Of a stretch of DNA of 46,676 nucleotides, positions 14,978-30,612 are shown one piece after another; position 1 is the first letter of the stretch, and each line of letters opens with the position of its first letter. Position numbers and translations under genes: made by a program. This stretch comes from a virus (lineage: Duplodnaviria; Caudoviricetes), in IMG/VR virus record IMGVR_UViG_3300025519_000053, positions 1-46,676 of that record. One strand, 5' to 3'. The notes beneath the pieces were generated by a model. The model worked only from the letters and a program-made list of their open reading frames with translations. It made no database searches and had not been told where the DNA came from.

Positions 14978-15478
14978 ATGACTCAAGTTACCAAAAATAA
15001 TTCCACTAAATTTTTAGGAAAAGAACGTTTAGAGAAAAGAGGAGACATTCATATAAAACATGATGTTTATATTGCAAGTCCTTTCTTTAAGCCTGACCAA
15101 ATTGAAAGAGTTCAATTAGTAGAAGATCTGTTGGATCGTTTAGGAATTACTTATTTCTCACCTCGAAAAGTATTAGTTTGCCCTCCAGATGCAACTGAAG
15201 AACAGAGGAAGAAAACATTTAAAGGAAACCATGATGGAATTCTTCAATCACGAGCTGTTATTGCAATTACTGATGGAAAAGATGTTGGTACAATTTGGGA
15301 AATGGGAGTAGCTTATCAAGCTGGTGTTCCTGTTATTGGCGTAGCATTAACTCTTGGAGACAAACCTTTCAATCTAATGTTAAGTGAAAGTTGTTATTCA
15401 ACATGCCGAACAATTGAAGAACTTGAAAAAACTTTGACTGATGGATCCGAGATTTATTATGAAGGAAAAATTGAATAA
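14978..15478 (+). CDS. Nucleoside 2-deoxyribosyltransferase / nucleotide N-glycosidase family (MilB/DNPH1-like)
   Basis: VYIASPFF, YFSPR and DGKDVGTIWEMG (catalytic Glu) motifs. Confidence 0.88.
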   Translation: MTQVTKNNSTKFLGKERLEKRGDIHIKHDVYIASPFFKPDQIERVQLVEDLLDRLGITYFSPRKVLVCPPDATEEQRKKTFKGNHDGILQSRAVIAITDGKDVGTIWEMGVAYQAGVPVIGVALTLGDKPFNLMLSESCYSTCRTIEELEKTLTDGSEIYYEGKIE

Positions 15479-15644: not shown

Positions 15645-15911
15645 ATGAAGATATTGAAATTCAAACAAAACAATTGTACTCCTTGCAGAATAGTAGATCA
15701 ATTCATTAAAAATGATTTAAATACTGATGCTGATGAAACTTTAATTTTGTTCAGTGGAGATAATCGAGCAGATGATCTAGCTGTCAAATATGGAGTTATG
15801 CAAACACCAACTATTGTCCTTGTCAATGATAATGAAGAAATTATTGATATTGTTCGTGGAGTTGATCAAGAAAAAATCAGAAGCATCTTTGAGAAACGAG
15901 GACTTATCTAA
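15645..15911 (+). CDS. Thioredoxin/NrdH-like protein
   Basis: CTPC active site and YGVMQTPT cis-Pro loop. Confidence 0.88.
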   Translation: MKILKFKQNNCTPCRIVDQFIKNDLNTDADETLILFSGDNRADDLAVKYGVMQTPTIVLVNDNEEIIDIVRGVDQEKIRSIFEKRGLI

Positions 15912-15962
15912 CAGAAGATTAATTTTTTCTTAATCATTATTATATAATTGGAGGAATGAAAT

Positions 15963-16511
15963 ATGTCATCATATTTTAATCGAGGAAAAGTAAAATATCT
16001 TGGGAACCCTATGATCTTAGGGTTGGGTGAAATTATTAGATATAACAATAGGCCAAAAATTAAGAACGAAAATGTTGCTGAACACTCTTTCTATGTCATA
16101 ACTACTGTTTTAAAAATTGTAAAAATGTATAACCTCAGTGATGATGTTAAAAATAAAGCTCTTGAATTTGCAGCAGTTCATGATATTGGAGAATGTTTTT
16201 TAGGTGATGTACCATATGATACTAAATTAAATAATCCAACTTTATCAGAAGTTCTTGAAGAAGCTGAAGTTATTGCTTTAGAACAAAATATGCCAGAGTT
16301 TTCTGAATCATATAAACAGTTCTTAAAAGAAGAAAAAGAAGAAACTGTAGCTTACTTGGTGACTAAACTTTCTGATGCTGTTTCTGTTCTGCAATATTCA
16401 AACCGTGAATTAGAGCTTGGAAATAGAACACCTCAAATGAAGGATATTAATGAGGATGCTCAACAACGAGTCACTAAATTGATTGAAAAGCTTGAAAGTA
16501 AGATCAATTAA
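15963..16511 (+). CDS. HD-domain 5'-deoxynucleotidase / dNTPase (YfbR-like)
   Basis: RYN, ENVAEHSF, HDIGE..GDVP and KLSD motifs. Confidence 0.88.
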   Translation: MSSYFNRGKVKYLGNPMILGLGEIIRYNNRPKIKNENVAEHSFYVITTVLKIVKMYNLSDDVKNKALEFAAVHDIGECFLGDVPYDTKLNNPTLSEVLEEAEVIALEQNMPEFSESYKQFLKEEKEETVAYLVTKLSDAVSVLQYSNRELELGNRTPQMKDINEDAQQRVTKLIEKLESKIN

Positions 16512-16537
16512 CAATTTCATTAATTGGAGGATAAGTT

Positions 16538-17915
16538 ATGAATTATACTGGAAAGAAAATTGCTATACTTCGAGGTTATCCCTAGATTGATTGATGGAGA
16601 ATCAACAGCAGTGGAAGAAATGTTCCGATGGGGTCTCCAAAATGATGTTGATTTTCATACTTACTATTATCATGCTCCATGGAAAAGAAAAAAGCCAGAA
16701 TACAAAGATGGATACACTCATAAGTATACCATTTTTTCAAGGGACAATATTAATGAAATTGTTAATGAAATAAATAAAAAATATGATTTAGTAATTCTGA
16801 TTAACCCAGCTAAACCTCACAGTGGACTTAAAAAAGAGGACGTTATTGAGTTCCATAAGATGTATAAAAGACTCATCCCAGTGAAAGTACAAATGCAACA
16901 TACATCTTTTGTGAAAGCTATGAAAGAAACCCCTTTTTGTTGGTCTTATATAAATGAATCTGACGCTATTTATAATCACTCTGATGAAAGTTATTATATG
17001 AATGCTTTAGTTAAGAGGCTTCCATCAAAAAGAGATCGAGCTTTCCCAATGCACTTATGGACTGATGTAAAACGATTCAAAGATTTTTACAAAAATACAA
17101 AACGTGAAAAGAATCTAACTTATATTGGAAGATTTGTATTGTATAAAGGTCCAAAAAGACTTTTAGATATTTCTGAGGCAGTTTATGAAGCTGGAATTCA
17201 ACCAGTCATTTATGGAATGGACACAAGAATTGGCTGTAAACAACAAATTTTAAGCCATCCAAATTGTAACAACTTATTACAGCCAAATTTACCTAAAAAT
17301 GAAAATCCTATTGTTCCCACTTATGGAAGAATTAAACGTGAAGAAGTTTTAAACAAATTCAATAAAAGTTTATTTGCTTGTACTCTTTTTAAATTCAAAA
17401 GAGATATTGATAAATCATCCTATGGAGATAGACTAGAATACACAATGCAAGAAGCTATTTGTTCTGGGGCCATCTTAGTTGTAGATAAAGAATGGGCTGA
17501 AGAATGTAAGACTATTGACGGAGTTAAATATATCGATATTCCTAACTTTGCTATCTATATGGACGAAGAAAATCCATATGAAGCAATTCAAGAAATGAAA
17601 AAGGTTGCTAAAGATCCAGATTTACAACAGTTATATCGGGATACAGCCTTCAAAGTTCTATTAAATGAGTATGATAATTCTGTTGTCCTTCCTAAACTTA
17701 TGACTCAACTATTCAATATTACAAAAGATCCTTATAAGTTTAAAGGAGATTTTGAACTTGTTGAATATCTTACAAAATCGACTTCTAAAGCTGAAAGGTT
17801 TATTGAACTTTATGAAGAAGGAAATTTAATGCCTATGTTTCCTGGTGCAATTGAAGAAAATAAAATATCGATCTTTACTGGAAAATCTGGTAAAGCCATC
17901 AAAGAAGTTGTTTAA
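16538..17915 (+). CDS. DNA alpha-glucosyltransferase-like GT-B enzyme, split by a +1 frameshift after codon 15
   Basis: QH, DAIYNHSD, YIGRFVLYKG and RLEYTMQE..SG line up with T4 AGT as recalled (QH, DVIFSHSD, WIGRTTTWKG, SLEYTHLE). GGAGG/ATG 16538 gives MNYTGKKIAILRGYP-stop; the main body is in the +1 frame (ORF 16560-17915). Confidence 0.8.
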
Positions 17916-18065: not shown

Positions 18066-18503
18066 ATGACAAAAGAGATCTCAACTACTTCCCCTAAATT
18101 TATAATCCTTGAAGGTGTCGACAGGTCGGGCAAAGGGTCTATGCAAAATGCAATTGATAAAGCTACTAAATATAAACATTTTGTAATGGATCGGGGACCA
18201 ATAGGATTCATGACTTATTGTGTTCTATTTAACAAGCCAAAAGATCTTTATACAGAATACCAGCATATGGAAAATGTATTTAGTCAAATTCCTAATATTT
18301 TAATGATATATCTAACTGCTTCAACTGAAGAATTAATAGATCGTTGCATACGTACAAATCATGAGATATTAGATTTTGATCTTCATAAAAAAGTCTATGA
18401 GAGTTATGTTAAAGCTTCTAAAATCCCATCAATCACTATAGATACAACTGAAAAGCATGTAGATGAAATTGTTCAAGATTTAATTAAAGAGGGGATCCTA
18501 TAA
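18066..18503 (+). CDS. Thymidylate-kinase-like dNMP kinase
   Basis: ILEGVDRSGKGS P-loop, VMDRG, IYLTAS. Confidence 0.8.
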   Translation: MTKEISTTSPKFIILEGVDRSGKGSMQNAIDKATKYKHFVMDRGPIGFMTYCVLFNKPKDLYTEYQHMENVFSQIPNILMIYLTASTEELIDRCIRTNHEILDFDLHKKVYESYVKASKIPSITIDTTEKHVDEIVQDLIKEGIL

Positions 18504-19666: not shown

Positions 19667-20656
19667 ATGCCAGTCAATAACAATCTTGAACCTGTAAAAT
19701 TACCAATGGAATTTCGTTTTGGTGAAGAACCAGATTTTGAATTTGTCAATGATTTAGAGAATATTAATGTTACTTTAGTTGACCATACTCCATGGGAAAA
19801 CATTGTTAAATACCTTCCTGGTTATGTAAATGCAACTTGGTCAGATGAACCTGGAAAACATTATGATATGAAACAAACAGCTGATGACATTGAGAAAGCA
19901 TTCACTTTCAAAACTTTGCCTTCAATTTTAGAAACTATTCGTTTAACTTTTCGAATTGAAGGAATTTCAGTTCAAGATGTGACCCATTTAATTCGTCATC
20001 GAACTTTTGCATTCTCTGCTCAATGTACAGGCGATCGTTGGTTAACTCATCATACAGCTGTAGTTCCAGAATCAATTCAAAATTCTCCTGAGTTTTATGA
20101 ACGATACAAAAAATTGACTTATGAGTGCAGGAAATTATACCAAGAAATGATTGACTCTAAGAAAATTTCAATTATGGATGCACGATTAATTCTTAATAAG
20201 AACCATGATAATTTCTACTATGCAAGTTGCAACTTTAAAGATCTTCTTGGATTTATTAAACAACGTATTGATCGACAAATTCAACCAAAATCAGATAATA
20301 TCATTGCATATCAAATGTGGCTGTCAGTATGCAGAGTTTATCCAATTGCACACTTGAATATTATTGATTTTGAAATGCCATCATGGCACTATATTAAAAA
20401 TGCTCGTACAGGCCATGCTACCAATCTTTATTTTCCAGAAGAAAACAGTGACATATTTGAATGGAACGAAAAAGACTTTATCTATCAAGCATATCGTGAA
20501 GATATTAATGGAACTAACCCTCCAGAAGGTCCTACGGTCTTCCAAAAAATGTTTGATGAGTATAAGAAAGAACTTGAATCACTTGCTACTAAATCTAAAA
20601 AATATATGGAAGAACTTCGTGGAGGTAAGTTAAATGATAAAAAGTTTTCAGTATGA
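19667..20656 (+). CDS. thyX: ThyX-like flavin-dependent enzyme, Cys-variant motif
   Basis: LE..TFRIEGIS, HLIRHRTFAFSAQCTGDR and DARLIL motifs. Start set at the ATG after GGAGG. Confidence 0.8.
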   Translation: MPVNNNLEPVKLPMEFRFGEEPDFEFVNDLENINVTLVDHTPWENIVKYLPGYVNATWSDEPGKHYDMKQTADDIEKAFTFKTLPSILETIRLTFRIEGISVQDVTHLIRHRTFAFSAQCTGDRWLTHHTAVVPESIQNSPEFYERYKKLTYECRKLYQEMIDSKKISIMDARLILNKNHDNFYYASCNFKDLLGFIKQRIDRQIQPKSDNIIAYQMWLSVCRVYPIAHLNIIDFEMPSWHYIKNARTGHATNLYFPEENSDIFEWNEKDFIYQAYREDINGTNPPEGPTVFQKMFDEYKKELESLATKSKKYMEELRGGKLNDKKFSV

Positions 20657-21089
20657 TTTACCAGTTGCTGGTGAATTATTAGTTTCAAAAGATACTGAGG
20701 AAATGGTTCTATTTGAGCCATTCCTCTTGATTAATCCAAGAACTGATGATAAGTTTCCATCTTCTGACGAACCATATTATACAGCTTTAGAAATGCAGTT
20801 AAGACATTTATTGTATAAATTTCTTAAAGGATGGATAACAAGTGAACGACAGGTTATCTTTTCAAGTGACGAATGTATTTCTACTGTTCACTTTATTTTT
20901 GATGAACATAAAGAAGTAAAACAAATTAATGTTTTTCAGAGATCTTCTAATCTATTGAATCTTGAAGATGATGTGATGTTTTTTAACTATTTCATCAAAA
21001 AGTATCTTAAACCTGAAAAAGTTGACCTTTCTATTTTTGTGAGCATGCCTCATTTATTCAAGAATAAGAAGAAGAAAGTTGAAGATTGA
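20634..21089 (+). CDS. Minimal thymidylate-synthase/dCMP-hydroxymethylase-fold protein
   Basis: R-Q..., CISTVHF, FQRSSN..EDD and SMPH echo the ThyA C..Q/QRSxD..N/H motifs in only 151 aa. Confidence 0.6.
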   Translation: MIKSFQYDLPVAGELLVSKDTEEMVLFEPFLLINPRTDDKFPSSDEPYYTALEMQLRHLLYKFLKGWITSERQVIFSSDECISTVHFIFDEHKEVKQINVFQRSSNLLNLEDDVMFFNYFIKKYLKPEKVDLSIFVSMPHLFKNKKKKVED

Positions 21090-29503: not shown

Positions 29504-30328
29504 ATGGCAATTATTGTGGTGGTAGATGTAGGAAACTTTAGTACAAAATATGCTTACCAGGATGAAAAAGAGATTAAATCAAATTCATTTCCATCATACT
29601 TACATCAATATAAAGAATTGGAAAATGTTGAAGGGATGCAAAGAATTCAATATAATAATCTTGACTACTTTGCTGGAGAGAAAGTAAAAGCTTTTTATTT
29701 TGGTAGAGAAGAACAAATGTATTTTGGAAATACCAAAAAAGGGCACCATGAAGCACAAATTAGACTTGTTTATGCTTTATATAATGTATATAAAGAAACA
29801 GGAATGAATGAGTTTAATCTAATCCTTACATGTCCTTATGAAAGTATGGAGGTAGATAAAAAATACTTCACCAGCAATTTTGAAGGAAAAAGAGAAGCTC
29901 AAATTGATAATGAAACTTTCAAGTTTAGCGTAAATAGAATTATAATGGCAGCTGAAGGATTGGGAGCTTTCCATTTTTCCAAGTCTCCAAACTGTGTAAT
30001 TATTGACGCAGGTTCAATGACACTAAATATACTATACTTAATTAATGGATCAATTAGTAGAGAGGACAGCCACACATTAAATGGTGGTACAATTCATAAT
30101 AGTGTTTTCCAATTAGCATCAACTTTTGCTAAGACTTGTACAAATGTAGACTATGATTATCCAATTATTTGTACTGGAGGGAAGGCTAAAGAAATGAAAG
30201 AAGTCTTAGAACAATTAGGTTATTCTGAAGTTTCAATTGCAGACTTAAGGAACCAACCAACATATTATGTCAATTCAGTTGGATTGCTTATGAAGTATGG
30301 CAAAAAGTTTGAGGAGATGTTTTCATGA
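29504..30328 (+). CDS. ParM/StbA-family actin-like ATPase
   Basis: VDVGNFSTK (phosphate 1), AEG, IDAGSMT (phosphate 2), TGG. Confidence 0.85.
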   Translation: MAIIVVVDVGNFSTKYAYQDEKEIKSNSFPSYLHQYKELENVEGMQRIQYNNLDYFAGEKVKAFYFGREEQMYFGNTKKGHHEAQIRLVYALYNVYKETGMNEFNLILTCPYESMEVDKKYFTSNFEGKREAQIDNETFKFSVNRIIMAAEGLGAFHFSKSPNCVIIDAGSMTLNILYLINGSISREDSHTLNGGTIHNSVFQLASTFAKTCTNVDYDYPIICTGGKAKEMKEVLEQLGYSEVSIADLRNQPTYYVNSVGLLMKYGKKFEEMFS

Positions 30329-30612
30329 GACGTAGACAGGACACCTTCTTATATCAAATAAATTTCAATAGGAAGAAGTATCCTGAAATCTGCGAGGCTC
30401 TTGAAGAGGCTAAAAAAAATAACGGAATTGCTTTCTATCTAAGAAAATTAATTTCAAAGGATATTGAAGCTAGGAAGAAAAAGTCCTATATCCCTAACCA
30501 ACAACAACCTGAACAAATCGAAGAACAAGAGATAAAAATGAATCACCAACACTATTCTGAGAATAAGGAATCATCATTGGATCTCCCAGATGATTCTGGT
30601 GGATTCTTATAA
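30325..30612 (+). CDS. Putative ParR-like (ribbon-helix-helix) adaptor
   Basis: Coupled to ParM by ATGA; beta-helix-helix-like N-half and disordered acidic tail. Confidence 0.6.
   Translation: MRRRQDTFLYQINFNRKKYPEICEALEEAKKNNGIAFYLRKLISKDIEARKKKSYIPNQQQPEQIEEQEIKMNHQHYSENKESSLDLPDDSGGFL

Follow-up and report, generated by a model that had tools for sequence, protein, structure and literature searches.

Near the start of a glycosyltransferase-like gene in the window, the whole 46,676-nucleotide stretch analysed here, a 15-codon reading frame ends at a TAG stop and the enzyme body continues in the +1 frame. Is this break real, is it shared by related phages, and could ribosomes cross it? The original prediction treated it as a prfB-like +1 frameshift cassette that gates the enzyme. 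The window is a 46.7-kb linear virus record (~55% complete, 31% G+C). The coordinates on which that prediction rests are all correct (GGAGG, ATG 16538, TAG 16583, the +1 body, TTG 16560, GAGGT and CCC), and the junction has the following features.

16526..16530, plus strand: ribosome-binding site (RBS) GGAGG of the glycosyltransferase gene, from the sequence; anti-SD pairing -9.3 kcal/mol.
16538..16585, plus strand: zero-frame reading of 15 codons from ATG 16538, MNYTGKKIAILRGYP, to the stop TAG 16583-16585; encodes the first beta-strand of the family.
16560..16562, plus strand: TTG picked by gene callers, with a weak SD, which would give MLYFEVIP instead of the first strand.
16572..16576, plus strand: SD-like GAGGT, encoding Arg-Gly; its GAGG stops 4 nt short of CCC, and GAGGT stands 10 nt upstream of TTG 16587.
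16580..16585, plus strand: CCC TAG, where the extra base lies and a +1 slip from CCC to CCU is predicted; in-frame relatives are one base shorter here.
16584..17915, plus strand: GT-B enzyme body, T4 alpha-glucosyltransferase-like, 443 codons, open in the +1 frame from AGA 16584 to the stop at 17913-17915.
16587..16589, plus strand: TTG one base past the stop, from the sequence, a possible re-initiation start for a product without the first strand; anti-SD pairing -9.4 kcal/mol with a bulge.

The last of these, with GAGGT 10 nt upstream, had been overlooked in the original prediction.

The enzyme body matches PHROG 2888, alpha-glucosyltransferase (E 1e-48), gives profile matches to PDB entries 1y6f and 1xv5, and matches the GR1 protein UDY80704 at 88%. 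A wider profile aligns with T4 AGT from the first strand onward (E 1e-60). In the model of the intact homologue P0026 (pLDDT 93), the first strand is E7-13, and the T4 AGT chains are the top nine Foldseek matches to this model (TM 0.70/0.81). The KKIAILR of the zero-frame peptide corresponds to the first strand of T4 AGT. Since this peptide is the first strand of the family, it is a needed part of the fold. Both the P0026 model and the T4 AGT alignment thus agree with the earlier assignment of KKIAILRG to the first beta-strand, and the T4 AGT start quoted with it, MRICIFMARG, is that of PDB 1xv5 and aligns with the window strand. Judged from profiles and models, the predicted gene product is a T4 AGT-like GT-B glycosyltransferase with homology over both domains. 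T4 DNA alpha-glucosyltransferase (PDB 1xv5, 1y6f and 1y8z) has the same GT-B fold, with a profile match from the first strand, but contains ARGLEGCGVT where the window gene has RGYPRLIDGEST, and the window gene has ~55 extra C-terminal residues. The Ala, Arg and Gly of the first strand are near-invariant in the family. When the MLYFEVIP form is modelled, LYFE still forms a short strand, and confidence over the first 20 residues is 61 and 74, versus 93 and 84.

Within the family, sequences vary near a conserved ELEY-like motif (17400-17430). The window lineage has KRDIDKSSYGDRLE, as do the distant P0009 and P0014, and close relatives have KTGIDKSFYGDRLE; this difference is possibly a specificity variant. 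Phage G contains two AGT-like genes (L006 397-1779 and 5941-7350) that are ~30% identical to the window gene and lie near glucose-1-phosphate thymidylyltransferase and cytosine methyltransferase genes. The phage G products gp306 and gp313 stand beside T4 AGT as the closest known enzymes, and the identity to gp306 is 30%. Between the HD gene and the glycosyltransferase gene of L010, an ORF (739-1650) carries a motif that we take to be that of an NAD-dependent nucleotide-sugar epimerase/dehydratase. Because this ORF lies beside the glycosyltransferase gene, the sugar in that clade may not be glucose.

The window is collinear with Geobacillus phage GR1, with a near-full match for 35 of the 37 GR1 genes tested, and its closest named relative has Geobacillus as host. 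A tblastn control gives single-frame matches for 35 of 37 GR1 genes; this control also reads through the break at 16580 and is therefore blind to breaks near gene starts. The glycosyltransferase gene (16538-17915) lies among nucleotide-metabolism genes, and gene order is largely kept in related loci.

14978..15478, plus strand: nucleoside 2-deoxyribosyltransferase-like gene (PF05014); adjoins the glycosyltransferase gene in L002-L004, L011, L012 and GR1.
15963..16511, plus strand: HD-family 5'-deoxynucleotidase-like gene (PF12917, phrog_7076); the next gene upstream.
18066..18503, plus strand: thymidylate-kinase-like gene (phrog_761).
19667..21089, plus strand: ThyX-like gene and 151-aa partner (PF02511, phrog_35203); the pair is kept in L002-L004 and GR1.

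The HD-family gene is upstream of the glycosyltransferase gene in all related Bacillaceae-type loci. The ThyX-like gene overlaps the 151-aa ORF, and the two are candidate makers of a modified acceptor base. Fold and function searches with the 151-aa partner gave no assignment, and searches gave no support to a by-eye reading of ORF 20634 as thymidylate-synthase-like. No dCMP hydroxymethylase is listed in the GR1 annotation. The thymidylate-kinase-like gene encodes 145 aa in the window and GR1 and ~343 aa in L002 (6483-7514) and L003 (6559-7587). The N-terminal part of the longer version resembles a GIY-YIG endonuclease by eye, and the kinase part is only 54% alike. Runs X2 and X3 carry the same replacement of this gene as L002 and L003. 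A nonsense change in L002 (4062-4316; window 15897) removes four residues from a thioredoxin-like gene. An actin-like partition gene and a small partner are found at window 29504-30612, as in GR1, and suggest a plasmid-like temperate phage. Relatives of the glycosyltransferase also occur on ~85-kb contigs of Bacillus wiedmannii and Priestia megaterium.

The extra base near the gene start is genuine. It is present in L002/L009, a strain 99.6% identical to the window (24 differences in 6506 nt), and contigs from runs X1, X2 (depth 2311, with other SNPs) and X3 cross the junction without an indel. X1 may be the window's own source, X1-X3 are bioreactor runs of one year and maybe of one campaign, and L001 and L008, identical to the window, may be its own DNA. 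A contig from X9, a compost run of another study, covers 16401-16942 with 16 differences in 542 nt and no gaps, and represents a 97% relative; its junction is judged from the gap count. Coverage in X8 and X10 lies outside the junction. Sequencing or assembly error, which the original prediction named as one alternative, is extremely improbable. The evidence for the base comes from contigs and not raw reads, so minority alleles are invisible, but the same base count in X2, X3, X9 and L002/L009 and the presence of the broken signature in ENA and Logan proteins from other lineages rule error out by way of independent strains.

Around the break, nothing separates the window from L002 over 1135 nt (15898-17032), versus 24 differences in 6506 nt overall, and their SNPs cluster in the gene at 14978. 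This pattern suggests recombination tracts. The SNPs in the body are two silent and two altering changes (R150S and N257I, both of which look derived) and are uninformative. Between X9 and the window there are ~60 differences; of the nine that were scored, five are silent and four altering.

Most relatives do not carry the break. The 78 records (P0002-P0079) comprise nine with the broken signature, 65 in-frame, three distant in-frame forms and one without the N-terminus; among the 74 scorable records listed, therefore, 65 are in-frame and nine broken. The broken signature is a protein start ending ...EVIP-RLIDG, the +1 reading of xGA GGT TAT CCC, and the census took in 15 of 26 and 15 of 23 members of two large clusters. 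In the first search, all 22 cluster representatives are in one frame. The same holds for all six loci with DNA more distant than conspecific strains, so that an alignment of homologues finds no conservation of CCC-TAG. Their junctions read TAT CCT AGA (L004 and L010), TAT CCT CGA (GR1), TAC CCT CGG (L003) or TAT CCC CGN (L011 and L012), and TAT CCT AGA in one frame is the arrangement that the original prediction itself had set against its proposal. The junction Pro is the rare CCC in two of the six (L011 3995-4006 and L012 4524-4535), where it is the only CCC in the gene stretch. It is possibly a scar of base gain and loss, on cases too few to use. No relatives were found among the genome contigs or plasmids searched, and metagenome and viral scans returned no DNA of the P0030 or P0046 type.

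Both alleles are found among close relatives. Three contigs from X4 and X5, 93-97% alike to the window, have one base fewer at 16580 or 16583, with 6-10 other differences and depths of 3.1, 2.4 and 6.0. X4 and X5 are thus in-frame and X9 broken at 93-97% similarity, and clusters too hold both forms. On the sequences compared, the junction is not a conserved regulatory cassette and appears instead as a segregating allele, the gene being unbroken in most relatives. The conserved prfB-like gate of the original prediction does not survive these counts, nor the 4-nt SD spacing and the UAG stop discussed below.

The nine broken records represent six distinct full-length bodies of at least three types, and four of the nine belong to the window's lineage. 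The broken P0030 is 48 residues from the window and 22 from the in-frame P0026. The broken P0046, P0047, P0049 and the fragment P0072 fall in a clade ~142 residues from the window; the three full-length members are 4-6 residues from in-frame clade members and 2-11 from each other. The breaks in P0030 and the P0046 group are read from protein; a TAG after CCC is putative there, and CCC CCG would read alike. A single clade of broken bodies is rejected (p-AU 1.6e-57), in a test on a quick tree with the tested group named after an earlier tree had been seen. The fragments P0062, P0064 and P0071 are left unassigned.

For the 5' end of P0046, identity with the in-frame version present in the P0046 cluster is excluded. 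Of its 13 residues, nine agree with the +1 reading of the window, compared with 4-6 for in-frame loci; GR1 also matches the window at 9 of 13. At least 4 of the 45 nt of the P0046 5' end differ from the window, a count back-read from protein; three of four differences are silent in the zero frame and one changes Lys to Arg. A window-like broken 5' end on a foreign body points to recombination in the conserved RLIDGEST block, and the close in-frame relatives of the window mean that the site has undergone a gain, loss or crossover at least once more. The P0046 form could also be a compensated allele that is started in the +1 frame. A one-base insertion had been offered as an alternative to recoding: the insertion stands, but not as a private accident, for it recurs on divergent backgrounds. 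All nine N-terminal breaks are at one and the same site. Breaks further downstream would give fragments that the clusters miss, and the constancy of the site is biased for that reason.

No decay is visible in the broken bodies. Private changes at columns with 85% conservation among representatives number 0-1 in broken bodies and 0-3 in in-frame ones, and dN/dS is 0.046 for the window versus GR1, 0.052 versus L003 and 0.055 for the intact pair GR1 and L003, although a recent loss would escape both tests. In X4, an in-frame junction occurs beside stretches that are 98.6-100% identical to the window (linkage is not shown), and the lack of decay may simply reflect a young break. The site of the break is more telling than these decay tests. 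One-base duplications in the body give a shift-prone codon followed by a stop in 25 of 1323 cases (nine sites), six of them CCC-stop. The gene's four 6-base A/T runs, where slippage is expected, lie elsewhere, and the run at the break is 2-3 C only. The choice of site is to be read with the caution that the finding was picked for its look.

Several translation signals are normal for the window and others are rare. ATG 16538 pairs with the anti-SD at -9.3 kcal/mol and TTG 16560 at -5.5, against a median of -10.2 over 40 other starts; the RBS of the ATG is of normal strength for this window, and TTG 16560 is without a good RBS, as first reported. CCC accounts for 6 of the 340 Pro codons in the window. 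Arg-Gly dicodons contain GAGG in 22 of 41 cases and GAGGT in only 2 of 41. At the RF2-type register of 3 nt, three of six positions pair with the anti-SD. RNA structure is neither significant nor conserved (z -1.29 for the RBS-junction region, -1.95 downstream); for a 3' stimulatory structure, looked for among nested folds, z is -1.95 in the window, 0.19 in GR1 and -0.99 in L003. A +1 slip at CCC would yield the exact family sequence RGYP-RLIDG.

As in prfB (RF2), a shift-prone codon is followed by a stop early in the gene, SD-like purines lie upstream, and a full-length product would need a shift. The site differs in having CCC-UAG with the SD at 4 nt rather than CUU-UGA-C with the SD at 3 nt. 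The RF2 internal SD lies 3 nt before the shift codon, according to the available text of PMC5009743 and PMC10798248. Because the stop is UAG and the product a glycosyltransferase, there is no feedback of the RF2 kind; autoregulation is absent here, as is the site from most orthologues. The prfB features present are thus the shift-prone codon and stop, and those missing are the 3-nt SD, the UGA feedback and conservation. The R-G-Y likeness to RF2 stems from a protein motif kept in in-frame homologues.

There is also a likeness to SPP1 gene 17.1 and the Listeria phage tsh gene: these too belong to low-GC phages with Gram-positive hosts and have a rare CCC, with re-pairing to CCU, ahead of a stop. 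These CCC-stop +1 shifts, cited in the original prediction, are documented in the text available of PMC6316719 and PMC5009743. The window and its strains share the CCC-stop site but not the two functional products: in SPP1 and Listeria phages the shift adds to an already complete protein and each product has a use, whereas the window site has UAG as its stop, gives a 15-mer without the shift and is polymorphic. For SPP1 CCC-UAA in B. subtilis, the portion of PMC6316719 available describes products compatible with a ~3:1 ratio. CCC-UGA shifts at 15% in E. coli pheL, at 1.9% in Salmonella and, for half of a set of 19 genes from E. coli, at >1% (PMC5009743, available text). No figure for the efficiency of CCC-UAG was found in the accessible part of PMC3082878.

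Taken with these analogies, the explanation that we tentatively prefer, at somewhat less than an even chance, is a segregating +1 allele that was spread by recombination or recurrence and is probably leaky through CCC-UAG slippage, lowering DNA glycosylation. Ribosomes would initiate at ATG 16538 and, with the rare CCC bound by peptidyl-tRNA-Pro, come to a pause at UAG. Most would terminate after 15 codons, and a minority would re-pair on CCU in the +1 frame, giving the exact family sequence and a normal enzyme; this slippage is proposed by analogy with SPP1 CCC-UAA. Repeated mutation, or recombination in the RLIDGEST block, would account for the spread of the broken 5' end. With enzyme levels lowered, glycosylation of the DNA would fall too, a benefit against hosts whose defences are aimed at sugar-modified DNA, as with T2 agt. 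By the same analogy with T2, both alleles could be held in one population.

A complete loss of function is one rival. In an effective null the enzyme would be off, with slippage too low, and the allele would have spread by selection for unmodified DNA, hitch-hiking or recombination. This is rather unlikely. It would be in keeping with the 65 in-frame records among the 74 scorable ones listed, with a phage at depth 2311 in X2 despite the break, with a break that X4 indicates may be young, with the strong selection of T2 agt nulls described in the accessible text of PMC12633550, and with CCC-UGA shifts that are often ~1% in E. coli genes (available text of PMC5009743). Nulls would, however, be expected more often at 6-base A/T runs or as nonsense changes, whereas this break lies at one of few self-correcting sites and is kept without decay across bodies up to 142 residues apart. 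Another rival, in line with the original prediction, is a selected programmed +1 frameshift, in which a sub-lineage SD-CCC-UAG cassette sets a lower enzyme dose and is now exchanged between bodies. All broken forms need GAGGT-TAT-CCC, which is present in one of the six in-frame loci with DNA; three of the four 5' differences between P0046 and the window are silent in the zero frame; and CCC-stop has precedent in Gram-positive phages. Against these points, the site is not conserved and near-identical relatives are in-frame, the SD misses the 3-nt register by a single base (PMC5009743 and PMC10798248, available text), UAG gives no feedback, and the count of three in four is small and biased by back-reading from protein. 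The broken 5' ends share descent, so the shared GAGGT is not independent evidence. A selected cassette of this kind is quite unlikely.

The +1 frame might also be entered at an alternative start, namely TTG 16560 (MLYFEVIP), TTG 16587 by re-initiation or, for the P0046 group, a start further upstream that may go with a compensating second indel, with the altered protein working. Gene callers do give proteins of 451 and 461 aa, the M-start of the P0046 group gives a normal length, LYFE remains a short strand in the model, and an SD-like element precedes TTG 16587. Yet the SD of TTG 16560 is weak and the codon lies within the translated 15-codon frame, the modelled confidence drops to 61 and 74 over the first 20 residues, the strand loses its near-invariant Ala, Arg and Gly, and the TTG 16587 product is without the entire first strand; such a start is very unlikely. 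It is rather unlikely that the 15-codon 5' end with GAGGT-TAT-CCC-stop is a portable recoding module, swapped onto bodies up to 32% divergent under balancing selection and giving a partial modification state. If it were, it would be a third state between on and off that could evade both restriction enzymes and modification-dependent nucleases, and a programmed frameshift caught still polymorphic.

The preferred leaky allele has two further parallels. The T2 agt contingency locus, as described in the available text of PMC12633550, involves the same enzyme family, single-base indel alleles and a plausible defence trade-off: loss of agt escapes TgvAB but exposes the phage to McrA/BC. T2 indels lie in A runs (counted at 6 or more), whereas the run here is 2-3 C, and here the break makes a self-correcting site that is common to several lineages. 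Both states are found among close relatives, as at a contingency locus, and a repeat of at least 6 bases at the indel is absent. The 'Savior' indel with compensatory frameshifting (PMC5009743, accessible text) is similar in that an indel lowers expression and slippage would keep some product; it differs in that the indel lay in a homopolymer, was selected by a drug and occurred in a virus of another kind. By analogy, the window case likely belongs to this class of indel plus compensatory frameshifting and not to conserved cassettes. No compensatory-frameshift case in a phage DNA-modifying gene was found in the open literature searched. The same searches gave neither a paper on GR1 nor one that describes recoding in a DNA glycosyltransferase of a phage, and the portions available of PMC13326640, PMC13313380 and 10.1101/2024.12.16.628780 contain nothing on such recoding.

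Each ingredient of this locus is already known, and their combination in a phage DNA glycosyltransferase was not found in the literature searched. Databases give the broken alleles as 451- and 461-aa proteins with a wrong N-terminus, a mis-annotation. Known phage CCC-stop shifts set the ratios of structural proteins, and the agt switches known so far work by all-or-none slippage in A runs. Even as a plain null, the allele would show that an AGT-like gene is polymorphic between on and off states in phages with Gram-positive hosts, which is of modest interest. If it is leaky, a common self-correcting indel would join both kinds of system in a heritable dimmer on genome glycosylation. The natural one-base allele pairs would then make partial modification in the face of opposed defences testable as a stable strategy, and would likewise open to test the route by which an ordinary indel becomes a programmed frameshift.
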